From NCBI RefSeq assembly GCF_026965535.1, contig NZ_CP114039.1:7907461-7971460 (forward strand): a DNA stretch of 64,000 nt. Direction: 5' to 3'. The translations under genes and the position numbers were made by a program. Positions 26,665-47,801 of this stretch are shown here, piece by piece. The notes below the pieces were generated by a model. It saw only the letters and a list, made by a program, of their open reading frames with translations, was not told the origin of the DNA and ran no database searches. Source of the stretch: Corallococcus sp. NCRR. GTDB taxonomy: Bacteria; Myxococcota; Myxococcia; Myxococcales; Myxococcaceae. Numbering within the stretch: position 1 is the stretch's first letter; every line of letters starts with the position of its first letter.

Positions 26665-27849
26665 TCACCCCGCCGGCTCGGCGGCGCCCTCGGGCTCTGG
26701 CTCCTCCGGCCCCTCCACGGTGCGCTCCAACGTGCGAGCGAGCGCGGCCCGGGCCTCCTCCGCCTCCTCGAAGGGCTCATCACTCCCGGCCCGCGCCGGA
26801 GGAGGCACCGTCGCGTCCAGTTCCTCCGGATGCAGGCGGAACCACTTCGCGACGAGCATCACCTCCTGGGCCTCCTGCGCGCGGAGGCCAATCGCCTCCG
26901 GCTCCGGCACGTCGAAGATGGCCCGCACGCGCGCGTCCAGCGCCGCCTGCTCGTCCGGCGTCCGGGGCGTGGGCACCTCCGCGCGGATCCGTCCCCGCCT
27001 GAGCACGTACGTGCGGTCCTCCCCGCCGTGCCCGCGCGCCGTGTAGATCAACGACAGCCGCCGCAGCGTGCGCCCCAGCTCGACGATCCACGCCTGCACG
27101 TTCTCCAGCCGCTCCGCGCGGTCGCGCAGCTCCGCCGCGTATTCGAACTGGAGCCGCCGCGCCGCCATCGCCATGCGCTCGCGGAGGATGACGAGCGGCC
27201 GGTCCGACTCGCCGTTGAGGAACGCCCGGGCCAGCGCGACCTGTGCCAGGTACTCCGCCGTCGTGCACCCGCTCGCGCACGGCGACAGACAGCGCGCCGT
27301 CTGCCCGCGCATGCACCGCGGGTCATCCTTCAGGGGGAAGAGCTGGATCTGATCCGCCAGCCGCATGGGCGTCTCGGACGGGCAGTCGCGCAGCTCCAGC
27401 AAATCATTCACCGCGCGCACCACGTCCGCCATGGTGTGCCGGCCATGGAAGGGCCCGAAGTACTCCGCGCTCCCGCCGCCGCCGGGCTGCCTCACCACGC
27501 GCAGCCGGGGCACGGCCTCGCGCGTGAGCTGGAGGAAGCAGTGCGCGCGGTCGCGCTTGTGCTCCACGTTGTAGAGGGGCCGGTGGCTCTTGATGAGGCG
27601 GAACTCATGCAGCAGCGCCGCGAACTCGCTGGCCGTGTACTCCCACTCCACCTGGTGCGCCTGGGCGACGATCTCCCAGGCCTTCTCGCCCTCGTCCGCG
27701 CGGAAGTACGACAACAGCCGCGTGCGCACCCGCACGGACTTGCCCACGTAGAGCAGCTCTCCAGCGGGGCCGAAGAACCGGTACACGCCGGGCCGGTTCT
27801 CCGCGCTCGCGCGGACGTGACTCAGGAGGGTGGCGACGCGCGGGTCCAT
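26665..27849 (-). CDS. GIY-YIG nuclease, UvrC-homologue (Cho-like) with UVR motif and an acidic C-terminal extension
   Basis: GIY-YIG GVYRFFGPAGELLYVGKSVRVRTRLLSYF; UvrC-like Cys cluster; UVR-like EYAAELRDRAERLENV; ATG at 27849. Confidence 0.7.
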   Translation of the reverse strand: MDPRVATLLSHVRASAENRPGVYRFFGPAGELLYVGKSVRVRTRLLSYFRADEGEKAWEIVAQAHQVEWEYTASEFAALLHEFRLIKSHRPLYNVEHKRDRAHCFLQLTREAVPRLRVVRQPGGGGSAEYFGPFHGRHTMADVVRAVNDLLELRDCPSETPMRLADQIQLFPLKDDPRCMRGQTARCLSPCASGCTTAEYLAQVALARAFLNGESDRPLVILRERMAMAARRLQFEYAAELRDRAERLENVQAWIVELGRTLRRLSLIYTARGHGGEDRTYVLRRGRIRAEVPTPRTPDEQAALDARVRAIFDVPEPEAIGLRAQEAQEVMLVAKWFRLHPEELDATVPPPARAGSDEPFEEAEEARAALARTLERTVEGPEEPEPEGAAEPAG

Positions 27850-27972
27850 GCGGTGAAGGGGCCCGAAACCGGGGCACCGCAGGCTAACCCGCCACGTCCC
27901 TGCGCACCGCCGTCCGCGCACGGCCCGTCACAACCCGGCCGGAGAGCGGCCAGCGGGCCACGCGCCCGGACT

Positions 27973-29244
<1,272 letters not shown>

Positions 29245-29376
29245 CTACCTGCACCTGGGGGCGGGGGGTGGGAAGGCGGCATTTCCGGGGCGGCCCGGCG
29301 GTTACATTGGGTCCTTCCGTTACCGATTCACCGCGCGTCTTGGGTCGCCGCGCCATTTCCGTTACAAGCCGCCGCC

Positions 29377-30975
29377 ATGTTCAACGTCATCAACGTCTCC
29401 AAGGCCTATGGGCCCAAGAAGCTGTTCGAGGAGGTCAACGTCGCCTTCTCGCCGGGCCGCCGCTACGGCCTGACCGGCCCGAACGGGGCCGGCAAGTCCA
29501 CGTTCATGAAGATCCTCGCGGGAGACGAGGAGCAGGACACGGGCGAGATCATCCGCCCGCGCAAGCTGGGCATCCTGCGCCAGGACCACTTCCGCTACGA
29601 GAACGACCGCGTCATCGACGTGGTGTTGATGGGCAACCGCCACCTGTGGGCGGCGATGGACGAGAAGAACAAGCTGCTCGCCAAGTCGGACATCACCGAG
29701 GAGGACGGCAACCGGCTGGGTGAGCTGGAAGGCGTCATCGCGGAAGAGGACGGCTATTCGGCGGAGAGCGACGCGGCCACGCTGCTGGCCGGTCTGGGCA
29801 TCGAGGAGTCCTTCCACGAAGAGCCCATGCGCCAGCTGACGGGCGGCCTGAAGCTGCGCGTGCTGCTCGCGCAGGCGCTGTTCGGCAAGCCGGACGGGCT
29901 GCTGCTCGACGAGCCCACGAACAACCTGGATATCGACTCCATCCGCTGGCTGGAGAACTTCCTCCACGTGTACGAGGGCGTGCTGATCACCATCAGCCAC
30001 GACCGGCACTTCCTGAACAGCATCTGCACGCACATCGCGGACATCGATTACGAGACCATCATCCAGTACACGGGTGGTTACGACGACATGGTCCGGCAGA
30101 AGTCGCAGCTGCGCACCCGGGTCGAGTCCGAGACGGCGGAGAAGAAGAAGAAGATCGCCCAGCTGCAGGACTTCGTGGCGCGCTTCCACGCCGGTACGCG
30201 CGCGTCGCAGGTGCAGAGCCGCATCAAGCAGATCGACAAGCTGAAGACGGAGGACCTGAAGCGCTCGAACATCGCGCGGCCGTTCATCCGGTTCGACCAG
30301 AAGGTGGTCAGCGGGCGGCAGACGCTGATGTTCGAGGGGCTGAAGAAGTCCTTCGACGGGCAGCAGGTCATCAAGCCGTTCACGGGCCTGGTGTGCAAGG
30401 GCGAGCGCATCTGCGTGATTGGCCGCAACGCGGTGGGTAAGTCCACGCTGGTGAAGATGCTGGCCAACCAGTTGGAGCCGGACGCGGGGACCATCACCTG
30501 GGGCCACCAGGCGACGGTGGGTTACCTGCCGCAGGACCACCACGGCGTCATCCACAAGGGCACGACGTGCTTCGGCTACCTCCGGGAGATCAGCGAGAAG
30601 CTGACGAACGAGGAGATTTCCGGCGTGTTGGGCCGGATGCTCTTCTCGGGTGAGGAGCGGATGAAGGCGACGGACACGCTCTCCGGTGGTGAGACGGTGC
30701 GCGTGCTGTTGTCCAAGCTGATGATCATGCAGGACAACGTGCTGATCCTGGACGAGCCGACGAACCACCTGGACCTGGAGTCCATCGCGGCGCTGGCGGA
30801 AGGCCTGTCCAAGTTCGAAGGCACGGTCATCTGCGTGACCCACGACCAGGAGCTCATCTCCGAGGTCGCGACCCGCATCTGGAGCCTGGAGGCGGGCAAG
30901 GAAGTGCTCGACTTCAACGGCCCCTACTCCGAGTTCATGGAGAAGCACGCGGACGCGGCGCTCAAGCGCCGGTAG
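29377..30975 (+). CDS. ABC-F family ATPase (YbiT/EttA-like; two ABC domains, no TMD)
   Basis: Two Walker A (GPNGAGKST, GRNAVGKST), two ABC signatures (LTGGLKLR, LSGGETVR), two Walker B (LLLDEPTNNLD, LILDEPTNHLD); ATG at 29377. Confidence 0.9.
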   Translation: MFNVINVSKAYGPKKLFEEVNVAFSPGRRYGLTGPNGAGKSTFMKILAGDEEQDTGEIIRPRKLGILRQDHFRYENDRVIDVVLMGNRHLWAAMDEKNKLLAKSDITEEDGNRLGELEGVIAEEDGYSAESDAATLLAGLGIEESFHEEPMRQLTGGLKLRVLLAQALFGKPDGLLLDEPTNNLDIDSIRWLENFLHVYEGVLITISHDRHFLNSICTHIADIDYETIIQYTGGYDDMVRQKSQLRTRVESETAEKKKKIAQLQDFVARFHAGTRASQVQSRIKQIDKLKTEDLKRSNIARPFIRFDQKVVSGRQTLMFEGLKKSFDGQQVIKPFTGLVCKGERICVIGRNAVGKSTLVKMLANQLEPDAGTITWGHQATVGYLPQDHHGVIHKGTTCFGYLREISEKLTNEEISGVLGRMLFSGEERMKATDTLSGGETVRVLLSKLMIMQDNVLILDEPTNHLDLESIAALAEGLSKFEGTVICVTHDQELISEVATRIWSLEAGKEVLDFNGPYSEFMEKHADAALKRR

Positions 30976-31045: not shown

Positions 31046-31149
31046 GCAGGTGTCAATCACCCTCACGGGGGATGCAATCGCAGCGAGGAGTGCGCCAGAA
31101 CCTGGGGTGCCAGGTCGTCCCACCCATGACGACCCGGGGGGGCACCTCC

Positions 31150-34100
31150 ATGACTCCGAACGACTCGGTCCTGCTGAAAGAGCTTCAGCAGCAACGCACC
31201 CGGTTGCTGGATCTGAGCGCAACCAACCGACTCCTCCATTTCAAGCACACGGCCCGGACGTCGCTGCGCATTGTGGATGAATTGCCAGGTGTCGTCTTCG
31301 AGCGCCTGAGCAACCACCGCGCGCTCACGTTCCTGCCGGTGATGCCGCCGGCGCATGCCTCCAAGGAAGAGGAGGACGTCGACCCCGCCGCCGCGACGGT
31401 GGTGTTTTCGATGACGACGGAGGAAGCCCCCAGCAAGGACGCCCGTCAGAATCTGGTGCTTCAACAGGCGAAGAAGTTGGGCATTGATACCCGGTATGAG
31501 CTGCCCAAGGCGCTCCCGGCAGAGAGCGGCAGCAATCCTCGCAAGCACCAGGACCGCCACCTCCAGACGTTGTACTTCCCGGAGGATCTGGAGAGCCACT
31601 TGCACCGTATCCAGGGCCTCGCGCAAACGGCCATCCAGGAGACCGGAGCCAACCTGCTCCACTTCGTCTTCGGGTTCCTGCGCTGGTACGAGTCTGGCGA
31701 CACGCGGCAGGAGAAGCCTCGCAGCGCTCCGCTCGTGCTCATGCCGGTGAGCCTCAAGCGCGGTCAGGCGCACCCGGAGACGCAGGTCCACGCCTACGAA
31801 GTGGACTACAACGAAGGCGAGTCCATCGAAACGAACCTCACGCTCCAGGAGAAATTGCGGCAGGAATTCGGCATCACGCTGCCGGCCTTCTCCGCGGACG
31901 AGGGCCTGGAGGCGTACTTCGACAAGGTGACGACGCTGCTCAAGGGACTGCGTCCTGGCTGGAGCCTGGAGCGGCAGGTGACCCTGACGCTGCTGTCCTT
32001 CGGGCGGCTCCTGATGTGGCGGGACCTGGAGCCTACCCGCTGGCCCCAGAACAGTCCCATGCTGGCGAACCCGCTCGTCCGAACACTGATGGGAGGACAG
32101 GCGCAGGCGAACGAACCTGGTGGAGGTGGCGGGGGCAGTCGGGAACGCCGGAGCGAGGTCTACGACCTGGATTCACCCGAGGTAAATCCTCCGCCGCTCA
32201 TCACGGACGCCGACAGCAGCCAGCACAGTGTGTTGGTGGACGTACTCCGAGGCGAAAACCTGGTGGTCCAGGGGCCGCCTGGCACCGGGAAATCACAGAC
32301 CATCACCAACCTCATTGGCGCGGCGCTGGCGGCGGGCAAGACCGTGCTGTTCGTCACGCAGAAGCTGGCGGCGCTGGAGGTCGTCTCGCGCCGCCTCCAG
32401 CAGGCGGGGCTCGGCGAGTTCTGCCTGGAGTTGCATAGCCACAAGACCCAGAAACAGCAGTTCATGGAGGATCTGCGTCGACGACTCAACCTGGATACGA
32501 GCGCGAGCGCCCCTCGCCCTCTCACCGAACAGGTCTTGAGCGCGGCAGGCATCCTGCGCGCGCACACCGAGCGAATGCACAAGCCTTTCGGGACGCTCGG
32601 CATGTCACCGCACGACGTGTTCTGGAAGGTCAGTCGTGCGGAGTCAGAGTTGGGGGAAGCGGTCGTGGAGTTGGAGGGCCTCCGCTTCGAGGGCGCTGAA
32701 GGTATGTCCCCCCTTGCGCTGGCGGAGGTTCGCAACGCGGTTCGGAACCTCGCGGCGCAACTGGGGGATGTTCGCCGCGTCGCGCCCATCCTCAGTGCCC
32801 ACCCATGGGCGGGTGTAACGAACGATGCGCTGACCGACAAGGACCGCCAGACACTCATTCAACGGATCGCCACCTGGGAAGAGTCCGCCCTACTTCTAGA
32901 GAAGGCGCTGGCGACCTTCACCGTCCGCACGGGCGTCACGCCCAGGTCGAGCGCGCTCGCGGTGGATGCGCTGGTCTCCAACATCCGGGTCCTGCCGCAG
33001 CTTCCGGAGGGTGCTCCCGCAACGCTGGTCCCTGCCCTACTCGATTCGACGCAGCGCCAGGGATTACGAGTCCTGCTCGATGCCATCGAAGCGGTCCAGA
33101 AGCAGTGGGCGGGGTTGGAGGCGGGCTGGCGAGCCCAGGAGGACCTGACCGTGACCGCGCTGCGCGACGCGGAAGCCGTCCTCGACATTACCCTGCGCCT
33201 GCTCTCGCCTGACACCACGCTCGTCACCCTGACGCGCGCGCACGAAGCGGTGGAAGCAGCGGCCCGAGGCCTGGGGCAGGCTCGCCGGTTCGTTGCCGAA
33301 GTGGCCTTGCGCCTGGAGGTCGACGTCACGCTCTGGACGCCTCAACAAATCCAGATTTTCGCCCGCGTCGTCGAGGCCATGGCCGCCCTGGACGACACCA
33401 CTTTGGAGTGGCGGGACCCACGCTGGCTTGAGCGCGAAGCCGAGGAGGCACTTCGGAAAGCCGGGGTGACGTGCACGGAATTGAAAGAGCAGGGCCGGGC
33501 GCTCGCGGTGCGCTTCATGCCCGAGCTTGTCCCTCCCCTCGCAACACTCAAGTCCCATGCCGTCGCGGTTTCGACCGCGCCATTCATCCCCTGGTTCTCG
33601 GGCGCATGGCGTGCCGCGCGGCGGGACTTCCAGGCCATGGCTCATGGTGTCCGTCCAACAAAGCCCGTACTCATCCAGGGATACAACGACCTGCTGGCAC
33701 ATTACGCGGCACGGGAGCGGTTCCAAGAGGACGCGACCCTGAAAGAGACCCTGGGTGCCCGCTTCCAGGGAATCGAGACGCGTTTCGATCGAATCCTCTC
33801 GTGGTTGGACACATACCGGAACATCGACGCATTGCTCCTCCCAATGGGCGAGCGAGGTCTGGAGCTGCGCCGCGCGGTGTTGGAGCGTTCCCCGAGCCAG
33901 TGGCGAGATGCCCTGGCGAGGGTCCGCGCGAAGAGTGATGAACTTCCCCAGGTCCGCGACGTGAGTACCTCCGTGCAAGAGGCCTCGACGCGCATGGGGC
34001 TGCCGCACGCGCCCTGGAACACCGAGCCCTGCGGAAAGGCCCAGGACAGTCTCGACGCCCTGCTGAAGCACCTGGGTAAGGTTCTGCATTGGGCACGGAA

Positions 34101-36348
34101 GGGAGATGCCCCGCCGTCCCTGCCCCTCTCTCAACTCCAGGGACAGTTGCGCAGGGTGCGCGAGGCGTGCGGAGCCGCGGAGCGGCTGGAAGCTCACGCT
34201 CCCGCAGCGGCCCTGCCGGGGGTGGCCTACCAGGGCCGGAAAACCTCACTCGCGGGTCCCCGAAGCGTTCTTCGCCATGTCGATGCCCTCCTGGCGGCGC
34301 CGCTGCCGGAAGGTCTGGCGGAGTGGCTGCTGCGAGAGGACACGCCACGAAGGCACGCGGACCTGCATGCGGCCGCGAACGAGTTGGAGACCGGGCTCAC
34401 TGCCTATAGACAGTCCGCCGCCCAAGCCTGGGAACTGGGAAGGATGGCCCCGGGCACCTGGGAGGAACTCGCCACCGAGTCCCCGCTCCAATCGACGGTC
34501 TTGCGCCTGCGTCAGGCCCGAAGCCAGTCCGCGACGCTTCCGGCCTGGTGCGCGTATCAACGGCAGCGGCGCGCCGTCGCGCGAGCGCGGAGCACCGCCG
34601 GGTTCCTGGAGCGCGTCGACACACGCCCCGGTCTGGAGCCGGAACAGCTGGTCTCCGCCTTCGACGCTGTCTTCTTCCGCTCTCTGGCGGAAGCCATCCT
34701 GCGAGACCAACCAGAGCTCGATCAATTCACTGGCGCCATCCATGCATCCCAGCGAGAGGAGTTCGCACGCTTGGACACGCATTGCATCGAAAAGCAGGGC
34801 CGCTACCTGGCGCGTCAACTCAGCCAGCGTCCGGTTCCTCCCGGCGTGTCCTCGGCGAAGGTAGCGGGCATGACGGAGACTCATCTTCTGAGGCACGAGC
34901 TGGGAAAGAAGCAGCGGCACCTCCCCATCCGTGAACTGGTGGCACGCGCCGGCAGTGCGCTCCAGACGCTGATGCCGTGTTTCATGATGGGTCCGCAGTC
35001 TGTCGCCCAGTACCTGCCCGCCGGACAGCTGACCTTCGACCTGGTGGTGATGGACGAGGCCAGTCAGATGCGCCCCGAAGATGCCCTGGGAGCCATTGCC
35101 CGAGGAAAGCAGTTGGTAGTGGTGGGCGACCCGGAGCAACTCCCTCCCACCAGCTTCTTCGCCCAGATGGAGCAAGAGGACACAGACTCCAACGACGAGA
35201 CAGGACACGAGGCCGAGGGCCCGTCCTTCCTGGAGGATTCAGAGAGCATCCTCACGGCGGCGGCGGAGCGGTTCCCCATGCGCATGCTGCGCTGGCATTA
35301 CCGTTCCCGGCACCCCTCACTGATCGCCTTCAGCAATCGCGAGTTCTACAACGGTGACCTCATCACCTTCCCTGCACCGGGTGAGCAACTGGAAGGGTTG
35401 GGACTGCGCTTCCATAAGGTGGACGGAGGACTGTACGAGTCCAACCGCAACGTCCCCGAGGCTCGTGAGGTGCTCGCGAAGGTGAAAGAGCACGCGCGTA
35501 CACACCCCGAGCAAAGCCTGTTGGTCGTCACGTTGAACTCGAAGCAGCGGGATCTCATCGACGATCTGGTGACGGCCGAGGAGAAGAACGACGCGGACCT
35601 CCGGGCCTTCCTGGCGAGGTGGGAGAAGTCACCCATGCCTTTCGACGTGAAGAACCTGGAGAACGTCCAGGGCGACGAGCGCGACGCCATCTTCGTGTCG
35701 GTCACGTTCGGTCCGGACAAGAACGATCGCTTCCGGATGAACTTCGGACCCATCAACCAGGCGGACGGATACCGCCGGTTGAACGTCCTTTTCACGCGGG
35801 CGCGCTGCGCACTCACGGTGTTCGCGTCCTTCGACCCCTCGGACCTCAAGGTCCAGGAGAGCAGTCCCCGTGGGATGCGCGTCCTGCAACGGTACCTGTC
35901 CGAAGCCAAGGGAGAGAAGGTTGCGCACGGCGTGGGGAGCGGCCGTCCACCAGACTCCGACTTCGAAATCGCCGTCGCGAAGGCGCTCGCGGCGCGGGGC
36001 TTCGAGGTGGTTCCGCAGGTAGGTGTCGCGGGCTACTTCATCGACATGGCCCTCCGGCATCCCCAGCAATCGGGCCGATACATCCTCGGCGTCGAGTGTG
36101 ACGGCGAGCGGTACCACTCGTCGCGCTCCGCACGGGACCGGGATCGGCTCCGGGACCAGGTGTTGAAAGGCCTGGGGTGGAAGCTTCACCGCATCTGGTC
36201 CACGGATTGGTTCCGCTCGCCTTCAGAAGAGGTCGCCCGGATCGTCGCGCACGTTGAGGAACTCCTTCGGGAGGAGGCGGCTGGGTTGCCAGCCGTGGCG
36301 CGAGAAGAGTCCCCTGTGGATCAGCCAATGCGCGCCGTCAGCGCCTGA
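31150..36348 (+). CDS. DUF4011 / SF1 (Upf1-like) helicase / DUF3320 (Vsr/DUF559-like nuclease) giant protein; Hhe-like defence helicase-nuclease
   Basis: N-terminal DUF4011 (LLKELQQQRTRLLDLSATNRLLHFKH); Walker A VVQGPPGTGKSQTI; DEAS LVVMDEASQM; VVVGDPEQLPP; motif VI LNVLFTRARCALTVF; C-terminal Vsr-like IAVAKALAARGFEV...ILGVECDGERYHSS...RDRLRDQVLKGLGWKLHRIW; modestly lower GC than flanks. Confidence 0.82.
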   Translation: MTPNDSVLLKELQQQRTRLLDLSATNRLLHFKHTARTSLRIVDELPGVVFERLSNHRALTFLPVMPPAHASKEEEDVDPAAATVVFSMTTEEAPSKDARQNLVLQQAKKLGIDTRYELPKALPAESGSNPRKHQDRHLQTLYFPEDLESHLHRIQGLAQTAIQETGANLLHFVFGFLRWYESGDTRQEKPRSAPLVLMPVSLKRGQAHPETQVHAYEVDYNEGESIETNLTLQEKLRQEFGITLPAFSADEGLEAYFDKVTTLLKGLRPGWSLERQVTLTLLSFGRLLMWRDLEPTRWPQNSPMLANPLVRTLMGGQAQANEPGGGGGGSRERRSEVYDLDSPEVNPPPLITDADSSQHSVLVDVLRGENLVVQGPPGTGKSQTITNLIGAALAAGKTVLFVTQKLAALEVVSRRLQQAGLGEFCLELHSHKTQKQQFMEDLRRRLNLDTSASAPRPLTEQVLSAAGILRAHTERMHKPFGTLGMSPHDVFWKVSRAESELGEAVVELEGLRFEGAEGMSPLALAEVRNAVRNLAAQLGDVRRVAPILSAHPWAGVTNDALTDKDRQTLIQRIATWEESALLLEKALATFTVRTGVTPRSSALAVDALVSNIRVLPQLPEGAPATLVPALLDSTQRQGLRVLLDAIEAVQKQWAGLEAGWRAQEDLTVTALRDAEAVLDITLRLLSPDTTLVTLTRAHEAVEAAARGLGQARRFVAEVALRLEVDVTLWTPQQIQIFARVVEAMAALDDTTLEWRDPRWLEREAEEALRKAGVTCTELKEQGRALAVRFMPELVPPLATLKSHAVAVSTAPFIPWFSGAWRAARRDFQAMAHGVRPTKPVLIQGYNDLLAHYAARERFQEDATLKETLGARFQGIETRFDRILSWLDTYRNIDALLLPMGERGLELRRAVLERSPSQWRDALARVRAKSDELPQVRDVSTSVQEASTRMGLPHAPWNTEPCGKAQDSLDALLKHLGKVLHWARKGDAPPSLPLSQLQGQLRRVREACGAAERLEAHAPAAALPGVAYQGRKTSLAGPRSVLRHVDALLAAPLPEGLAEWLLREDTPRRHADLHAAANELETGLTAYRQSAAQAWELGRMAPGTWEELATESPLQSTVLRLRQARSQSATLPAWCAYQRQRRAVARARSTAGFLERVDTRPGLEPEQLVSAFDAVFFRSLAEAILRDQPELDQFTGAIHASQREEFARLDTHCIEKQGRYLARQLSQRPVPPGVSSAKVAGMTETHLLRHELGKKQRHLPIRELVARAGSALQTLMPCFMMGPQSVAQYLPAGQLTFDLVVMDEASQMRPEDALGAIARGKQLVVVGDPEQLPPTSFFAQMEQEDTDSNDETGHEAEGPSFLEDSESILTAAAERFPMRMLRWHYRSRHPSLIAFSNREFYNGDLITFPAPGEQLEGLGLRFHKVDGGLYESNRNVPEAREVLAKVKEHARTHPEQSLLVVTLNSKQRDLIDDLVTAEEKNDADLRAFLARWEKSPMPFDVKNLENVQGDERDAIFVSVTFGPDKNDRFRMNFGPINQADGYRRLNVLFTRARCALTVFASFDPSDLKVQESSPRGMRVLQRYLSEAKGEKVAHGVGSGRPPDSDFEIAVAKALAARGFEVVPQVGVAGYFIDMALRHPQQSGRYILGVECDGERYHSSRSARDRDRLRDQVLKGLGWKLHRIWSTDWFRSPSEEVARIVAHVEELLREEAAGLPAVAREESPVDQPMRAVSA

Positions 36349-36361
36349 ACAGGAAATATCC

Positions 36362-37927
36362 ATGACAACGATCATCGCCATTGGCCTGGGCGTTTTGGGC
36401 CTTTTGCTCCTGGGCTTGTTGCTGCGGACGCGAAGCCAACTCAAGGCGGTCCAGGCACGATTCAAGCCCATCCTGGACCTGGAGGCCGAACGACGCCGGC
36501 TCGCGGAGGAGTTGACGCAAGCCCGCACTGACGCAACCGCCGCGATGGCTGCGGAACAGAAGCGGGTCCAGGATGAGTTGGCGAAGTCCCGGAGCGAAGC
36601 GGACAATGCGCTGGCTGCGGAGCGGAAGCGGGTGGAAACCGAGCTCGCCCGCGCCAAGGCGGACGTAGAGCAGGCCATCTCCGCGGAGCAGGGCCGGGCG
36701 AAGGCGGAGTTGAACCGGATCCGCGAAGAAACGAACCGGACGACGCAAAGCGCGACGCGCGCCATGGAGGAGGCGGAAGCACGTCGAAAGCAGGCGAACA
36801 CCGAGCGGACCAGCCTGGAAACAGGCCTTGCCCGATTGAAAGCCGAATTGAAGGCATTGGAGGAAGAGGAGGTTCTGCTCACCTTCGGCTTCTACAAACC
36901 GGTGTACGCGCTGGCGTCGGTCAAGGAGTACGAGGACCGCTTGGAGAGGATCCGCGAATCGCAGAAGCAGATGCTGAAGAACAAGGAAGCAGCCACATGC
37001 TCCATTCAGTGGGAGGTGAATGGGAGCAAGGCGGAAGGCAAGAAGCAGATTGACCGGACCTTGAAGCTGATGCTCCGGGCGTTCAATGGCGAGGCGGACG
37101 CATGTGTGGCGAAGGTCTCCTACAAGAACGTGAAGGCCATGGAGACGCGTATCGAGAAGGCAGCTGCCGCCATCAATGGCCTCGCGGAGATCCAGCAGTG
37201 CGTCATTGCCAGGCGCTACGTCAAGCTCAAGGTCGAAGAGTTGATGCTCGCGTATGAGTACGAGGAGAAGGTGCAGCAGGAGCGTGACGAGCAGCGCCGG
37301 ATCCGGGAGCAGATGCGTGAGGAGGAGGCCGCCCAACGCGAACTGGAAAAGGCGAAACTGGAAGCGGAGCGCGAAGCGAAGCGCGACGCGGAGGCCCTGG
37401 CCAAGGCGAAAGCGGACTACGAGCAGGCCAAAGGCTCAGAGCAGCAGAAGTTGATGGAGCGCATCGCGGAGCTGGAGCGCCGTGTGGCGGAGGACCTGGA
37501 GAAGCAGCGGGCCATCTCCCAGGCCCAACTCACCCGGACAGGGCACGTCTACGTCATCTCCAACATCGGCTCGTTCGGGGAGGGCGTGTTCAAGATGGGC
37601 ATGACCCGCCGGCTGGTGCCCCAGGACCGCATCGACGAACTGGGAGACGCCTCGGTGCCGTTCGAGTTCGACGTTCACGCCATCATCCGGACCTCGGACG
37701 CCCCAGCCCTGGAAAACGCCCTGCACAAGGCCTTCGCGAACCGGCGCGTCAACCGCATCAACGAGCGCAAGGAGTTCTTCCGCGTCAACCTGGATGAGAT
37801 CGCGGAAGCGGTCCGCAAGCACCACGGCGAGTTTGAATTGACCCGGGTGGCCGAAGCTGCGGAATACCGGAAGACATTGGCACTCCAAGAGGAGGAACAG
37901 GGTCGACCCGGTGAGCGGGCCGCATGA
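36362..37927 (+). CDS. Membrane-anchored coiled-coil protein with DUF4041 and a C-terminal T5orf172 (GIY-YIG-superfamily) domain
   Basis: N-terminal TM MTTIIAIGLGVLGLLLLGLLL; long E/R/A/K-rich coiled coils; DUF4041 (LLTFGFYKPVYALASVKEYEDRLERIRESQ...); T5orf172 (GHVYVISNIGSFGEGVFKMGMTRRLVPQDRIDELGDASVPFEFDVHAIIRTSDAPALENALHKAF); starts 14 nt after the helicase stop. Confidence 0.78.
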   Translation: MTTIIAIGLGVLGLLLLGLLLRTRSQLKAVQARFKPILDLEAERRRLAEELTQARTDATAAMAAEQKRVQDELAKSRSEADNALAAERKRVETELARAKADVEQAISAEQGRAKAELNRIREETNRTTQSATRAMEEAEARRKQANTERTSLETGLARLKAELKALEEEEVLLTFGFYKPVYALASVKEYEDRLERIRESQKQMLKNKEAATCSIQWEVNGSKAEGKKQIDRTLKLMLRAFNGEADACVAKVSYKNVKAMETRIEKAAAAINGLAEIQQCVIARRYVKLKVEELMLAYEYEEKVQQERDEQRRIREQMREEEAAQRELEKAKLEAEREAKRDAEALAKAKADYEQAKGSEQQKLMERIAELERRVAEDLEKQRAISQAQLTRTGHVYVISNIGSFGEGVFKMGMTRRLVPQDRIDELGDASVPFEFDVHAIIRTSDAPALENALHKAFANRRVNRINERKEFFRVNLDEIAEAVRKHHGEFELTRVAEAAEYRKTLALQEEEQGRPGERAA

Positions 37928-39701
37928 ATTCGGCCCCGCCTACACTTCTGGTAGCGTTCACCTCTCAATGAGTTCCAACCCGTTTTCGTTTCCTGGGGAT
38001 GCGCTCCCCGACGCTGTCATTTCTGCCTCTAAAACTCGGAAAATCGCGTTCCTGGTAGGCTCTCCCTTGTCGACACAGGAAAGAGCCGACGCGCCCCAGG
38101 TTCCTGGCGTGAGCGCGATGGTGGCTCTGATCCGCGAGCACCTTCCGGCCGAAGCCCAAGCAAAATTTGACGCAGACCGACTGCATAACCAATCCAACGA
38201 GTACCAATGGGCCATGCGCTTCCTGCAGGGCCGAAGCAACAAAACGGCCGCCGAGAAAGTCGTACGAGAAGCTGTCCTCCGGGCACGGCTGGATCGACAA
38301 AAGGATGGCGCTGCCACGGACGAACAGCTTGACCAAGACTATCGTGGATGGGCGCTGCCGCCTGCGACGGAGCACCTCGGCAAACTCCTGGTGGAGAGGG
38401 CCGACAAGTTTGGTCCTGTCTTGACTACAAACTTCGACCCCCTCATCTCCGCGTCAATCAAGATGGCTGGCGGGAATTTCCATCGCACCCTCGTAGTCAA
38501 CGACAGTCCCTTCGGGCATACGACGCCGTCCTCCAACTCGACACACATCATTCATCTGCACGGGTACTGGCACAATTCGCCCACGCTACATACCAGCGCA
38601 CAGATCGCTCGTGATCGTGATCAGGTCGCCGCAGAACTCGTTCAGATCCTTCAAAACCACACACTCATTGTCGTCGGATACGGCGGCTGGGATGACATCT
38701 TCACCAAGACGCTCTCAGCGATCAACGCCAACCGGCACAATGACGTCGACATTCTCTGGGCATTCTACGAAACCGAAGCAGACCATCTGCTTGAGGCTCG
38801 CTATCAGCATCTATTCAGCAAGGTCACCAACTTAAGAGGCAATACGGGCCTTCGCTGCTACAGCGGAATCAATTGCCACAAATTCTTCCCTGAACTGCGG
38901 AGGCAGTTTGACGCATCCATTGCCCCGCAGACGCTCCCTCCCAGCACAATCCGACCGCCACCGCAGCCATCCTCCACAAGGGCCCCAAGCTCCAAAGCAT
39001 CTGAGCCAGTCGCCTCGACATCCTCAAGTGCGGCGAAGCCACCCGCGCCTGTGCCCCCCGTGTCGGACCGTCCCGCCTCCCCTTCCATTCCGAAAACAGA
39101 CGGCTCGGGCAGCCCTCCGAAATCGGGCTCCAGGAGGATCCTTACGTTTGCGGCAGCCGCGCTGATTGCCGGCGGGATGGCAGCAGTCTGGCCATCCCCG
39201 AGCAAAGACGTCAGCAATGACGTCTTCGTCGTTCAGACTCCGCGCAATCTGAGGCCTGTCCAGCCGCAGCCTCCTGCGGCTTACACTCCGTTCCCATCTC
39301 CCGCCGGTGGAACACTCCGGACCGCCCGCCAGCAACACCAGGTCGTACCTGCTTCGGACGCCGAACGTGGGACTCGCGTCTCGCAGCTTCCCAGGGGCCG
39401 TTACGCCTTTGTCCCGATGAGCGCTGTTCCCACCTATAGCGCGGACACATCCATCTATGGCCCGATCCAGGAGGGAATCGAGCTTCATCGCGCCCTCTCG
39501 GATGGGTCCCTGTACCTCGTGGGCTACGCGGATGCTCCAACCATCACGGCCCTGGGATATCCGAACCCTGCTCCCATCGTCATCACCCCCACGCCCAGCA
39601 ACAGAAGGACGCAGGTCGCGAGCATTCCCGTGACCCGGATGGCCACCGCGGAAGTTCGCATGGACAAAGGCACCCGCGTGTTGGTCCTCCACCTCAACTA
39701 A
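37911..39701 (+). CDS. SIR2_2-family (defence-type sirtuin-like) protein with Pro/Ser-rich linker, single TM helix and C-terminal domain; GTG start at 37911 overlaps the upstream gene (alternative ATG 37968)
   Basis: SIR2_2 motifs KIAFLVGSPLS, VLTTNFDPLISAS, HIIHLHGYWHN, LIVVGYGGWDDIF; low-complexity PPQPSSTRAPSSKAS... linker; TM ILTFAAAALIAGGMAAVWP; about 190-aa C-terminal region. Confidence 0.72.
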   Translation: MSGPHEFGPAYTSGSVHLSMSSNPFSFPGDALPDAVISASKTRKIAFLVGSPLSTQERADAPQVPGVSAMVALIREHLPAEAQAKFDADRLHNQSNEYQWAMRFLQGRSNKTAAEKVVREAVLRARLDRQKDGAATDEQLDQDYRGWALPPATEHLGKLLVERADKFGPVLTTNFDPLISASIKMAGGNFHRTLVVNDSPFGHTTPSSNSTHIIHLHGYWHNSPTLHTSAQIARDRDQVAAELVQILQNHTLIVVGYGGWDDIFTKTLSAINANRHNDVDILWAFYETEADHLLEARYQHLFSKVTNLRGNTGLRCYSGINCHKFFPELRRQFDASIAPQTLPPSTIRPPPQPSSTRAPSSKASEPVASTSSSAAKPPAPVPPVSDRPASPSIPKTDGSGSPPKSGSRRILTFAAAALIAGGMAAVWPSPSKDVSNDVFVVQTPRNLRPVQPQPPAAYTPFPSPAGGTLRTARQQHQVVPASDAERGTRVSQLPRGRYAFVPMSAVPTYSADTSIYGPIQEGIELHRALSDGSLYLVGYADAPTITALGYPNPAPIVITPTPSNRRTQVASIPVTRMATAEVRMDKGTRVLVLHLN

Positions 39702-39707
39702 CAATCA

Positions 39708-40370
39708 ATGACACTCAACAATCGAATCCTCATTCTTGGGCTGACGTCGGTTATCCTGCTAGCGGGCTGTGGGCCCGAGGACTTCAGCCCGGGCCCCATC
39801 ACGGAAGACCCGCCACTCGAAGAAATTTGTACTTCGGCGAACTGCGCAGGCTGCTGCGATCCAACCACGAACAAGTGCGTCGAAGTTCGCACCAACGATG
39901 CATGCGGAGTCACCGGCACCCAATGCACGAAGTGCGCGACCGGGACCATCTGCCATCCATCACAGCAGCAGTGCTACACCCCCACCATCCGCACGAAGAT
40001 CCAGCCTCTGCGCGCCCAGATCGCGCCGCAGGATCCTGCCGACAACAGTGATTGGGATGTGGATGGCTCGCCGCCGGATGTCGTGATCAAGCTGTCCTGC
40101 CCCAACGCGCAGCCTGCGCCCCCATCCGAGGAAGTTGAAAGCTTCACTCCCACCTGGACGAAGGGGGCATGCGACGTCCTGAGCACCGATCTGCTTTCGG
40201 CCCCCATCCAGTTCAGCGTCATCGACGTCGACACCCTCTTTGACGACCCGATTGCGTCGGTGCAGTACCAGGTGACTCGAGCCGACACTGACCGTGGCGT
40301 CCTGGAGTTCACGGGGTCCGGTGCGTTGCTCTCCGTGGCTTTCCAGGTCACCACCTACTACGCCGAATAG
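39708..40370 (+). CDS. Cys-rich lipoprotein (paralogue of 47184..47801)
   Basis: Lipobox ILLAGCGP; Cys-rich N-terminal module (CTSANCAGCCDPTTNKCVEV...CGVTGTQCTKCATGTICH...CYTP); shared motifs DWDVDGSPPDVVI and VQYQVTRAD with the 47184 gene; starts 7 nt after the SIR2 gene. Confidence 0.58.
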   Translation: MTLNNRILILGLTSVILLAGCGPEDFSPGPITEDPPLEEICTSANCAGCCDPTTNKCVEVRTNDACGVTGTQCTKCATGTICHPSQQQCYTPTIRTKIQPLRAQIAPQDPADNSDWDVDGSPPDVVIKLSCPNAQPAPPSEEVESFTPTWTKGACDVLSTDLLSAPIQFSVIDVDTLFDDPIASVQYQVTRADTDRGVLEFTGSGALLSVAFQVTTYYAE

Positions 40371-41488
40371 ACGGATACCTCGATCCGCCGCCAGCGTTGC
40401 TGGATGCTGGCGGCCATGTGCTTGCGGAGGTTTGCCATCCAGCGCTGACACGTCCTGGTCGCATCCTGCTCCCCTGCATTGAAGCCCAGTTCCAGGTCGA
40501 GGGCCCAATGCAGACTGGTGATGGCCTCGAGCCGCAGCTCATCCGGGGCCTTGAGCCGCGAGCGGGCCGCTGCCTCGAAGCATGGGTCCAGGAGGAGTGC
40601 CGCGATCGTGAGTTGAGGGCACGCCCCGCTTCGCCGGTCGATCAGCTCCCACAGTGCCGCCAGTGGCTCCGGACGCGCTCCGCCAATCAGCATCGCGACA
40701 ACGGCCAGCTTGTGGAAGATGGGATGTGTCTCACGGAAGAGCGCGAGGATTTCAGCATCCACGCCAGGACTCATCTCCACCGCTGCTTCCACGTGCAGCA
40801 CCAGCTCCTTACGGTCCAACCATCGGAGCGCGCGCGGGCCGGGGTCGAGAAGGAGGGCATCCATGAACGATGGGTACCCGCCATACTCCTGATAATAGCG
40901 CACACCTGCATTGCCCAGTCCCGCCCGCGCGTAGGTGCGAGGCCGGTCCGACAGAACGCCCGCGACACACGCTTCCTCCATGTCACAGCAAGACAACTCC
41001 GCGCCTCGGAGATTGGCGCAGCGCAGGTCCGCCTTCATCAATGTCGCTGCGGTCAAACGGGCGCCCTGAAGCCGGACGCGGCGGAATGAGCCGCGCACCA
41101 GGTTCGAAGCCGTGAGGGTCGCCCCTTCCATGGAGGCATCGTCCCAGCAGGTGCCCATCGCGACACACGCCATCAAACTGGCGCGCTCCAATCGCGCCCA
41201 GGACAGCGAGGCACCTGACAACGTGGCGAAGTCGAGCCGCGCCTCTTGGAGCCCGCAGTCGTCCAGACGGGCGCCATCGAGCCGTACATGGACGAGATCC
41301 GCGCCCGGTAGCTCTTCTTGTGTGAGGTCGATGCCTCGGAGATCCCCCACTTGGGGCCCCAGTGCATCCGCTCCCGGAAAGCCCTTGAGGACTTCACGCC
41401 AGGGCCCCTGGAATCCCGAGGCGAGCAGTCGCTCGCGCCGATGCAAGCCATCAGGTGTGAGCCAGCGCTCTGTCAGTTCGGGCAGCAT
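40358..41488 (-). CDS. Pentapeptide-repeat protein
   Basis: Many tandem A(D/N)LxG-type pentapeptides (ADLVHVRLDGARLDDCGLQEARLDFATLSGASLSWARLERASL...; ADLRCANLRGAELSCCDMEEA). Confidence 0.8.
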   Translation of the reverse strand: MLPELTERWLTPDGLHRRERLLASGFQGPWREVLKGFPGADALGPQVGDLRGIDLTQEELPGADLVHVRLDGARLDDCGLQEARLDFATLSGASLSWARLERASLMACVAMGTCWDDASMEGATLTASNLVRGSFRRVRLQGARLTAATLMKADLRCANLRGAELSCCDMEEACVAGVLSDRPRTYARAGLGNAGVRYYQEYGGYPSFMDALLLDPGPRALRWLDRKELVLHVEAAVEMSPGVDAEILALFRETHPIFHKLAVVAMLIGGARPEPLAALWELIDRRSGACPQLTIAALLLDPCFEAAARSRLKAPDELRLEAITSLHWALDLELGFNAGEQDATRTCQRWMANLRKHMAASIQQRWRRIEVSVYSA

Positions 41489-41591: not shown

Positions 41592-43043
41592 ATGTACCCG
41601 ATTCGCCGCCTTCTCGTTCGTGGACCGTGGTTGTTCGACCTCCGACCGCATCGGCTCATCGCCTTCCACGGAGCTGAAGGCATGCGCCGGGAGGTAGAAG
41701 GAGACGTGCCGGAGTACTCGTCCGCGCCCGTAGTGCTCGCCGCGCTCAATGAGTCAACGGACGTCTGGGTGGGAAGCGGGGATCGGCGTGTCTTCTCCGT
41801 GAGCACCGATGTGAGCGCATCCGTTCAGGCCTTTCCGAGGGAATGCTTCGATCTCACCTCCGATGGGAACCGGCTCATTGGAACGATGGTGGACGGCGCC
41901 CTCAAGCTGACCACCGTCTTCACGACCGATGGGTCCGGGCAGCGTTGGGAGCCCATGACTTTGCCCAAGCCCGTGTCCACCACGCACGGGTATGGCTATT
42001 CCGAGGGACGCCCTCCCCGTCAGTCCCCAGATGGGGCGTTCCTCGACACGAGCCCCTTTGGCATCACCGTCGTGGAGAAGGGCCGGGGCCGCGTCTACGT
42101 GCTCCGCTCGGGGGCGGCTCAGCCGGAGGGCGCGCTCCAGGTGGAACCGGGCCATGAGCAGGACATCTGGCGGGCCCTGGCCACTTCCCAGGGTGTGCTT
42201 CTCCTGCTCGTCATCGACTACCGGCAGACGGTGCTTCTTCACTTCGCGCTCGACGGCACCCTACTCGGCTCCCTCCCGTCCAACGATGAGGATGAGGACG
42301 AAGATGACGTTGAACTGACCTGGGGCGGTAAAGGGGTGTGCGTTCTCGACTCGGAGCGGGCGCTCCTCTTCGTGCAGGACAAGACCCTCCTGGTATCCCT
42401 GCCCGGGCTCCAGGTGCTTGAGACGCTCGCGGGGGAGTGGCCCCAATTCGTGTCCGTGGCGCCCGCTGGGCCAAACCGGTGGTGGGTGGGGTCCGAGGAC
42501 AGTGACGCGCTCTTCCTGCTCACCGCCGAGCCCGGACAGCCCTTGCGCCTCGACACCTCGAACCGTCCGGTGAGCCCGGGCGCGCCGCTCATGCACGTGG
42601 GCTACAAGACACCCACGCTCCACTGGACCGAACACACCTCGGCACCGCTGACTGTGTCCGCGCCCGTGTCCGAGACGTGGCGGGCGGTGGTGCGCAATGA
42701 CGGGACCGCGTGCGAGGCGGTACGGATCCGCGTGTCCGGGGTGCTCATCGGTGCTCGTGTGGTGGACGTGAGCGTGCGGTATCGCGGTCAGCCACTCCCG
42801 ATGGAGGAGGAGCACCGCGTGAACGTCGTGGGGGTTACCGGCGGCCTGGAGGCAGGGGCCACCGCGGAGCTGGAGATGACCTTCAAGCCCCGGAGCGAGG
42901 GCTCAGGACCGCTGACCATCACCGTCGAGCCATGCTCCTGGCAGTCTCAGGGCAAAGAGTGGCAGTGGGACAAAGAGCCGTCTCGCGTCCTCGTGGTGAC
43001 GGGCCATTCGGCATCCGCTCAATTCCTGCTCACGGTGGAGTAG
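41592..43043 (+). CDS. Hypothetical protein (possible beta-propeller-like N-terminal half plus Ig-like C-terminal)
   Basis: 483-aa ORF with ATG at 41592, consistent coding bias, no recognisable catalytic motif. Confidence 0.5.
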   Translation: MYPIRRLLVRGPWLFDLRPHRLIAFHGAEGMRREVEGDVPEYSSAPVVLAALNESTDVWVGSGDRRVFSVSTDVSASVQAFPRECFDLTSDGNRLIGTMVDGALKLTTVFTTDGSGQRWEPMTLPKPVSTTHGYGYSEGRPPRQSPDGAFLDTSPFGITVVEKGRGRVYVLRSGAAQPEGALQVEPGHEQDIWRALATSQGVLLLLVIDYRQTVLLHFALDGTLLGSLPSNDEDEDEDDVELTWGGKGVCVLDSERALLFVQDKTLLVSLPGLQVLETLAGEWPQFVSVAPAGPNRWWVGSEDSDALFLLTAEPGQPLRLDTSNRPVSPGAPLMHVGYKTPTLHWTEHTSAPLTVSAPVSETWRAVVRNDGTACEAVRIRVSGVLIGARVVDVSVRYRGQPLPMEEEHRVNVVGVTGGLEAGATAELEMTFKPRSEGSGPLTITVEPCSWQSQGKEWQWDKEPSRVLVVTGHSASAQFLLTVE

Positions 43044-47183: not shown

Positions 47184-47801
47184 ATGAAAGTCCTCGGCTG
47201 GTTGTTCGTCCTGATGTGCGCGCTGTGGCTCCCTGCATGCGGTCCCTACGACTGCACCCCGGAGAACTGCGCGGACGGCTGCTGCTCCGCGCTCAATGAG
47301 TGCATCCGCTACCGGAGCGACTCGGAATGCGGCCCCAATGGCGGCCTCTGTGAAGCCTGCGGGGCAGGCAGTGTCTGCCGGCTGGACCAGCGCGCCTGCT
47401 ACACGGGCGTGATGCGCACCTTCATCCAGCCCCGGTACGCCACCATCGCGGACTTCGACCCGGACACGGGCGAGGACTGGGATTCCGATGGCTCGCCGCC
47501 GGACGTCGTCGTGGAGATGAACTGCCCCTCCGCTCCCGAACGCACCCGCACCGAGGAAGACGAGAGCTGGGACCCCGAATGGAGGACCGGCGGCTGCCAG
47601 GTCATCACGTCCAACCTCCTGCGCTACCCGCTCGAAATCTCCATCTTCGACAACGACGACTACACCTTCGATGACGAGTTCGGCGGCCTCTCCTACCAGG
47701 TCACCCGCGCAGACCTGAACCTGGGCCGCATCGAGCTCTCCATCCCGCCCATCGTGAAGACGCTCGTCTTCGACCTGAGCCACAACTACGCGCCGCAGTG
47801 A
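47184..47801 (+). CDS. Cys-rich lipoprotein (paralogue of 39708..40370)
   Basis: Signal/lipobox LWLPACGP; NCADGCCSALNEC...CGPNGGLCEACGAGSVC...CYTG; DWDSDGSPPDVVV; SYQVTRADLNLG. Confidence 0.58.
   Translation: MKVLGWLFVLMCALWLPACGPYDCTPENCADGCCSALNECIRYRSDSECGPNGGLCEACGAGSVCRLDQRACYTGVMRTFIQPRYATIADFDPDTGEDWDSDGSPPDVVVEMNCPSAPERTRTEEDESWDPEWRTGGCQVITSNLLRYPLEISIFDNDDYTFDDEFGGLSYQVTRADLNLGRIELSIPPIVKTLVFDLSHNYAPQ

Follow-up and report, generated by a model that had tools for sequence, protein, structure and literature searches.

Within a 64,000-nucleotide (nt) stretch of the Corallococcus sp. NCRR genome (contig NZ_CP114039.1, forward-strand positions 7,907,461 to 7,971,460; hereafter the window), two adjacent genes, 37968..39701 (gene 1) and 39708..40370 (gene 2), form what we regard, on balance, as a two-gene conflict module spanning the cell envelope, whose role is most likely anti-phage abortive infection. 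Gene 1 joins a SIR2 enzyme head to a C-terminal domain (CTD) through a low-complexity linker, a single transmembrane (TM) helix and a Pro-rich stalk, and gene 2 encodes a predicted C2-domain lipoprotein; their public annotations are “SIR2 family protein” and “hypothetical protein”, respectively. An earlier note on this DNA had drawn attention to gene 1 as a SIR2_2 protein of atypical C-terminal architecture. Given that the CTD is common to four other types of effector head and is strictly linked to the lipoprotein gene, the relevant unit is the two-gene module rather than the SIR2 protein alone.

A C-terminal domain family without a solved relative

The end of the gene 1 protein had been described as a Pro/Tyr/Thr-rich domain that could not be assigned to any family. 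The Pro/Tyr/Thr-rich stretch is present, but this is merely a description of composition, and AlphaFold2, run on a 12-sequence alignment, predicts a compact structure of three helices and seven strands (mean predicted local distance difference test, pLDDT, 93.5; predicted template modelling score 0.86; all five models above a pLDDT of 91), which points to a real folded domain and not to low-complexity sequence. At 21–50% identity, the CTD can be aligned in all full-length relatives (Corallococcus, Myxococcus and Pyxidicoccus), with conserved residues at R473 (in an LR motif), E524-x-H526, G538 and P573..R576 and an invariant Phe (residues are numbered from the GTG codon at 37911). As to its family, the earlier statement holds: no match was obtained in Pfam even at E ≤ 10, nor in NCBIfam, PADLOC or PHROG, the Foldseek comparison that had been recommended returned no relative among 350,542 PDB chains (best E = 1.2, template modelling score at most 0.26), and a profile of the domain matched no PDB sequence at E ≤ 10. 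We describe the CTD as a domain without a solved (PDB) relative, and make no claim to an absolutely new fold. Nor is it a common annotated domain of SIR2 defence proteins; the nearest SIR2 homologues outside Myxococcaceae bear NB-ARC/NACHT/TPR or TIR domains in its place.

When 1.84 billion cluster representatives were searched with the CTD profile, a widespread family emerged, with 617 matches at E ≤ 1e-3, of which 132 reach E ≤ 1e-10, and it includes the stand-alone copies that the earlier note had asked after; a further homologue search with another CTD alignment gave a single match and nothing new. Its members are of three kinds: large proteins, hereafter fusion proteins, in which an enzyme at the N-terminus is followed by a low-complexity linker, a single TM helix, another linker and the CTD; small proteins of 130–230 amino acids, which either are soluble and lack a signal or carry a single TM helix at the N-terminus, about 50 of the small forms being devoid of any export signal; and proteins that are secreted or resemble lipoproteins and contain the CTD in two or three tandem copies. 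Nothing else is recognisable in tandem-CTD proteins of this last kind (P0126, P0171, P0224 and P0257). Small stand-alone CTD proteins (among P0148–P0265) also occur outside Myxococcota, for instance in Bryobacteraceae, and no conserved partner was recognised for the genes encoding them at the loci inspected (P0191 in L006, P0151 in L007 and P0177 in L058).

Exchangeable effector heads

A Pfam census of 32 large CTD representatives identified five types of head in front of the TM helix and CTD, namely TIR_2 (7 proteins), PNP_UDP_1 (7), FAD/Rossmann (4), Metallophos (2) and SIR2_2 (2), and at least five more SIR2-headed forms were present among the top CTD profile matches. The TIR heads, carried for example by P0129, P0130, P0138 and P0169, match the PADLOC models ThsB, Aga_TIR and PDC-S66; the PNP heads match the CBASS PN effector and PDC-M60C; the Metallophos heads match the CBASS endonuclease effector and PDC-S60; and the FAD/Rossmann head matches Lamassu LmuA (E 9e-91). 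Judged by these matches and those of the SIR2 head, all five types correspond to known defence effector modules. One PNP-headed protein additionally bears EAD5. The identity between CTDs does not track the type of head: it is 21% between the SIR2-headed proteins of the window and of locus L004, 32% between the former and the FAD-headed protein of L019, and 42% between a TIR- and a Metallophos-headed protein. This indicates that heads have been exchanged repeatedly on a constant tail, a pattern that is typical of defence systems and that recommends the module for experimental validation in Myxococcus.

A C2 lipoprotein gene follows the fusion genes

By its signal peptide and lipobox, the gene 2 product is a predicted lipoprotein. 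The putative lipidation site, C21, is invariant in 29 sequences of its family, one of which matches LPAM_1. The mature part consists of a 10-Cys module followed by an eight-stranded β-sandwich of the C2 fold. Gene 2 itself has no match to Pfam C2 (PF00168); 14 of the 29 family members do at E ≤ 1, the best at 3.7e-7. Twelve Cys residues are conserved across the family which, together with the lipobox, fits an oxidising compartment. In Myxococcus xanthus, Lys at position +2 marks inner-membrane lipoproteins and Ala at +7 those of the matrix (PMC3222651). Mature gene 2 has Gly at +2 and Ser at +7 and thus fits neither signal, so that anchoring on the periplasmic side of the outer membrane may be taken as the default.

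Ten non-redundant fusion loci extend far enough on the 3′ side to be judged, and in 10 of 10 the C2 lipoprotein gene lies 3′ of the fusion gene, at a distance of 7–160 nt or with a 4-nt overlap, as confirmed by six-frame hidden Markov model (HMM) searches of the loci. These homologues of gene 2, 35–40% identical to it, directly follow fusion genes with differing heads (Table 1). The same six-frame searches found no lipoprotein gene beside the small stand-alone CTD genes, and no fusion of a CTD to the lipoprotein (a Rosetta stone protein) was present among 265 proteins that included the best ~150 CTD representatives. Pairwise distances of the CTDs and of the lipoproteins co-vary (Mantel r 0.87, p 1e-4), also once the closest pair is removed (r 0.71, p 0.002), showing that CTD and lipoprotein travel together.

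The lipoprotein family has members elsewhere. A second Cys-rich C2 lipoprotein, 38% identical to gene 2, is encoded in the window at 47184..47801 (+), scores 20.5 bits against Pfam C2 (cut-off 22), and has HxlR, GST and BrkB-type genes and no CTD gene as neighbours; C. coralloides has the same second copy (L013 9730-10338). Several genomes of Corallococcus and Vitiosangium have a paralog behind a gene for a Haem_oxygenas_2 protein, an iron-containing redox enzyme, in place of a CTD gene, and the family accordingly has at least one other conserved partner.

Architecture and predicted topology of gene 1

The reading frame of gene 1 is open from GTG 37911 to 39701 (+), 596 amino acids. In an alignment of 18 homologues, however, the start used corresponds to ATG 37968 (M20), which we take as the likely one. 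An identical protein in Corallococcus (P0001) is annotated as 527 amino acids starting at M70, and this shorter form lacks KIAFLVGSPLS, a conserved Gly-rich loop in the SIR2 fold (window 37911..38120). Full-length relatives in Corallococcus, Myxococcus and Pyxidicoccus are 32–83% identical over 92–97% of the protein. A 46%-identical SIR2-TM copy in which the CTD frame is lost after the stalk is P0010 (502 amino acids), from a 7.6-kb contig labelled as a Hymenobacter metagenome-assembled genome; this label looks doubtful, the protein being otherwise restricted to Myxococcaceae.

SIR2_2 (PF13289) is the sole Pfam domain of the protein (E 1.8e-11, 44.8 bits against a curated cut-off of 24.5), and the motifs previously read as intact, VLTTNFDPLIS, HIIHLHGYWHN and VVGYGGWDD, are all there, as is the Gly-rich loop FLVGSPLS. 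N174, D176 and H217 are invariant among the 18 homologues, within invariant blocks T172–L178 (TTNFDPL), L216–G218 (LHG) and G258–D262. The Asn of TTN.D and the His of HLHG presumably act in catalysis, as they do in ThsA-type SIR2 proteins. Human FAM118B is the closest solved relative of the head (E 1e-3 to 1e-4), with TTNFD and HIHG aligned to the N174/D176/H217 motifs. The head is a putative NADase, an enzyme hydrolysing nicotinamide adenine dinucleotide (NAD+). Weak PADLOC matches to pAgo-SIR2, PDC-S65 and LmuA models are restricted to this part of the protein.

Downstream of the head, the low-complexity linker PPQPSS...PVPPVS and the hydrophobic helix ILTFAAAALIAGGMAAVWP were both found as reported. 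The linker varies in length and sequence in the 18-homologue alignment, the helix scores as a TM segment (mean Kyte-Doolittle hydropathy 1.79 over 19 amino acids), and the stalk measures 35–85 amino acids in homologues (alignment columns 510–590). Lys and Arg (K/R) were counted within 15 residues of the helix: in the window there are 4 on the N-terminal and 1 on the C-terminal side, and an N-side excess is seen in 26 of 28 informative fusion proteins, with the opposite in 2 (p = 1.5e-6). Because of this charge bias, the absence of an N-terminal signal peptide from the enzyme heads and their requirement for NAD+, we infer that the enzyme lies inside and the CTD outside the inner membrane; the reversed topology, with SIR2 outside, was rejected on the same three grounds. 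An exported, Cys-rich partner with predicted lipidation agrees with an outside CTD, as do the secreted tandem-CTD proteins P0126 and P0171.

Table 1. Features of the two genes and the defence genes preceding them (window positions; gene 1 residues numbered from GTG 37911), and the pairings of lipoprotein genes at other loci
Feature	Position or locus	Strand	Details
Hhe/PDC-S37-type helicase-nuclease defence gene	31072..36348	+	PADLOC PDC-S37 1258 bits, Hhe E 1.5e-283
PD-Lambda-1 defence gene	36254..37927	+	PADLOC E 3.8e-152; Pfam DUF4041 + T5orf172
Gene 1, SIR2-linker-TM-stalk-CTD protein	37968..39701	+	577 amino acids from ATG 37968 (likely start)
SIR2_2 domain, predicted cytoplasmic	38022..38945	+	residues ~38-345
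Pfam SIR2_2 core	38418-38777	+	residues 170-289
Predicted catalytic N174	38430-38432	+	SIR2 head
Predicted catalytic H217	38559-38561	+	SIR2 head
Pro/Ser/Ala-rich low-complexity linker, predicted cytoplasmic	38946..39137	+	residues 346-409; KSGSRR end abuts TM helix
Single TM helix	39138..39194	+	residues 410-428
Pro-rich stalk, predicted periplasmic	39195..39305	+	residues 429-465
CTD, unannotated alpha/beta domain, predicted periplasmic	39306..39698	+	residues 466-596, 131 amino acids
Gene 2, predicted lipoprotein	39708..40370	+	220 amino acids; starts 6 nt past gene 1 stop
Gene 2 signal peptide and lipobox			residues 1-20; LLAG-C21, Gly at +2
Gene 2 Cys-rich module	39828-39974	+	residues 41-89
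Gene 2 C2 beta-sandwich	39984-40367	+	residues 93-220
SIR2-TM-CTD + lipoprotein	L001; L004		Myxococcus; uncultured relative, 4-nt overlap
PNP-TM-CTD + lipoprotein	L008, L056
TIR-TM-CTD + lipoprotein	L010, L054
Metallophos-TM-CTD + lipoprotein	L011
FAD-head-TM-CTD + lipoprotein	L019
N-terminally truncated CTD gene + lipoprotein	L015
Lipoprotein with Haem_oxygenas_2 instead of CTD gene	L016 4185-4895; L021 4204-4893; L042 3748-4812

Proposed mechanism and alternative explanations

We propose that gene 1 would be a single-pass inner-membrane protein, with a SIR2 NADase head in the cytoplasm and the CTD held in the periplasm upon its Pro-rich stalk, and that gene 2 would be a disulfide-rich lipoprotein of the outer membrane whose C2 domain, of the membrane/Ca2+-binding type, faces the periplasm. 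The CTD and the lipoprotein would then make up a constant sensing part, to which the cytoplasmic head is attached as a swappable effector. An envelope event (phage adsorption, genome injection or envelope breach) would alter the state of the CTD and lipoprotein, leading to receptor clustering, to a gathering of the SIR2 heads, and through hydrolysis of NAD+ to arrest or death of the cell. With a single TM helix, a change in oligomeric state would be the simplest route for such a signal. Multimerisation is a theme of TIR NADases. It is likewise one of sirtuins, the antiphage ThsA and Avs5 as well as FAM118B requiring multimerisation or filament formation for activity (PMC12700824), and Kiwa, Zorya and SNIPE illustrate that the membrane can be the site at which defence is set off (PMC13434031).

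More tentatively, and as a possibility that we would not yet call probable, the pair may act as a trans-envelope immune receptor, in which the inner-membrane protein holds out its CTD across the periplasm to the outer-membrane C2 lipoprotein. A bridge disturbed by entering phage or by damage to the envelope would bring the receptors together and set off the cytoplasmic NADase or, in relatives, the TIR, PNP, phosphoesterase or LmuA-type head. If so, this would represent outside-in immune signalling in bacteria, following the logic of Toll-like receptors and built from parts that are unannotated in Pfam, NCBIfam, PADLOC and PHROGs. To our knowledge, almost all SIR2, TIR and PNP defence effectors described so far operate under cytoplasmic sensors (STAND NTPases, cyclic-nucleotide receptors or Argonautes). 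Here, the same set of effectors would be wired to an extracytoplasmic sensing part made of two proteins, for which the four libraries searched hold no annotation. The sensing of infection or damage at the envelope would thereby be coupled to NAD+ depletion in a form open to testing, a new domain family of 617 clusters would become approachable through its genetic link, and the C2 domain would gain a role in the bacterial periplasm. The effectors and the design logic are known, and the new element would be the extracytoplasmic sensing module; in term searches of PMC7159879, of PMC8195603 and of the wider literature covered, neither the CTD nor the C2 lipoprotein was found described, singly or as a pair.

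Several observations weigh against the envelope-spanning module, or against parts of it. The basis for its topology is confined to hydropathy and charge bias, and about one-third of the best 150 CTD representatives are small and carry neither signal peptide nor TM helix. In small CTD proteins that do have an N-terminal TM helix, the charge bias places the CTD in the cytoplasm in 16 of 17, so the domain is not intrinsically periplasmic and can evidently function on both sides of the membrane. The lipoprotein family also extends beyond the module, as the unlinked paralog inside the window illustrates, and only 4 of 41 genomic lipoprotein loci (all from Myxococcota) have a CTD gene. The Mantel correlation could reflect shared descent and not co-evolution. 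Searches of phage genomes (tblastn) and of PHROGs yielded no CTD relative and hence no hint of the trigger, and the defence-island argument consists of one window plus scattered nuclease and immunity neighbours.

Some of the same evidence may be read in other ways. The architecture could be as proposed and its trigger unrelated to phages: in social myxobacteria, cells in contact might exchange the lipoprotein, or it might react to attack by other myxobacteria; its state, as read by the CTD, would then lead the NADase to carry out kin discrimination or programmed cell death, making the module a self/non-self or developmental death receptor. The whole module, with effector, TM helix, CTD and lipoprotein, was found only in Myxococcota, and outer-membrane lipoproteins are reportedly exchanged on contact between M. 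xanthus cells. The L008 pair adjoins genes of the kind usual in toxin/immunity regions of myxobacteria (Imm52, DUF2380 and Gmx_para_CXXCG), and the EAD5 of the one PNP-headed protein is a domain of conflict systems in multicellular bacteria. We nonetheless consider a non-phage trigger unlikely, as the window pair is accompanied by two anti-phage genes, the effector heads are of types that phage-defence systems use, and the lipoprotein, 72–91% identical between Corallococcus orthologues, gives no indication of the polymorphism seen at kin-recognition loci.

Distinct from this is the question of whether the outer parts sense anything. The CTD and lipoprotein might merely anchor, localise or inhibit the effector, while the SIR2 head or its linker takes the activating cue from the cytoplasm. 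The CTD, to which no ligand-binding family could be assigned and many members of which are cytoplasmic or soluble, may serve generally for interaction or oligomerisation. For this to hold, five unrelated heads would have to share a cytoplasmic cue with only the outside parts kept constant, for which a reason is hard to see, and the strict linkage to an exported partner would have to be accounted for; we regard the idea as distinctly unlikely. The most conservative view would be that of an ordinary, solo SIR2 defence protein, in which the tail is fast-evolving filler and the lipoprotein an unrelated neighbour. It agrees with the public annotations and with SIR2_2 as the only Pfam match, but is contradicted both by a tail modelled at a pLDDT of 93.5 and belonging to a family of 617 clusters, and by a lipoprotein neighbour kept in 10 of 10 loci over five head types, and we give it almost no credence. 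An envelope-spanning conflict module, probably directed against phages, is the interpretation that we retain.

Comparison with known systems

With the SIR2 defence proteins Avs5, ThsA, LmuA-SIR2, SPARSA and DSR, gene 1 has in common a SIR2_2-type head with Asn and His motifs, and by analogy its expected output is NAD+ depletion, probably activated by multimerisation (PMC12700824). Unlike these systems, it comes with no STAND NTPase, SLOG, APAZ/pAgo, SMC partner or HerA, the sensor being replaced by the TM helix, the predicted outside CTD and the lipoprotein gene. Assignment to any one of them was accordingly rejected. For Avs5/SIR2-STAND, Pfam detects no P-loop domain in gene 1, and the NTPase-bearing relatives are 940–1040 amino acids long; for Thoeris ThsA, there is no PADLOC match to ThsA or ThsB and no SLOG in Pfam. 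The LmuA match covers residues 166–268 only (E 0.0021), next to PD-Lambda-1 and lipoprotein neighbours, and the PADLOC matches to short pAgo SIR2-APAZ (SPARSA) cover residues 156–305 only, within the SIR2 part.

Kiwa KwaAB, Zorya ZorAB and SNIPE are alike in concept, in that an inner-membrane protein with a periplasmic part senses the phage and controls a cytoplasmic effector (PMC13434031). They are unrelated in sequence or fold, however, and have DNA-binding or nuclease effectors that let the cell survive infection, whereas this module combines NAD- or nucleotide-degrading heads with a C2 lipoprotein of predicted outer-membrane type. The three-part logic of the TIR-headed relatives, with a putative outside sensor, one TM helix and a TIR domain inside, is that of Toll-like receptors, although the order is reversed (the enzyme is N-terminal) and the outside domain is not a leucine-rich repeat, so that the likeness is one of analogy and not homology. 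The conflict systems of multicellular bacteria described by Kaur et al. 2020 (PMC7159879) and 2021 (PMC8195603), with exchangeable effectors and EADs, have the same effector repertoire (TIR, PNPase, SIR2 and calcineurin-like), a myxobacterial bias and a further point of contact in the CTD relative with EAD5, but are built on an NTPase core that this module does not have. Neither component of the membrane “System 4” of the 2020 paper (an EACC1 TM gene followed by a caspase-headed gene) is detected here by Pfam, and the idea that the module is this membrane-associated two-gene system was rejected. Compared with the eukaryotic-type C2 domains of cPLA2, synaptotagmin and perforin, that of gene 2 is bacterial, predicted to be lipid-anchored and preceded by the 10-Cys module, and its binding of Ca2+ or lipid is putative.

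Genomic context

Genes 1 and 2 lie directly 3′ of, and on the same strand as, the Hhe and PD-Lambda-1 defence genes, the former of which combines the Pfam domains DUF4011, AAA_11/12 and MTES_1575. The G+C content of the window, 0.70–0.73, dips to 0.60–0.66 at about 30–48 kb and is lowest, at 0.601, at 38–40 kb. The genes flanking the pair vary between genomes, which suggests that the mobile unit is the pair alone; neighbours elsewhere include an HSDR_N protein (L001) and an HNH protein (L056).

On the 3′ side of the pair are a pentapeptide-repeat protein gene (40358..41488, −), which matches several PHROGs of unknown function, and a gene for a 483-amino-acid protein without Pfam, PADLOC or PHROG match (41592..43043, +), neither of which is kept beside the SIR2–lipoprotein pair in other genomes. 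Just 5′ of the Hhe gene, 26830..30975 (+) encodes a protein of 1381 amino acids with two ABC_tran domains and AAA_21 in its last ~520 residues and no Pfam match over the N-terminal ~860, possibly another defence gene.

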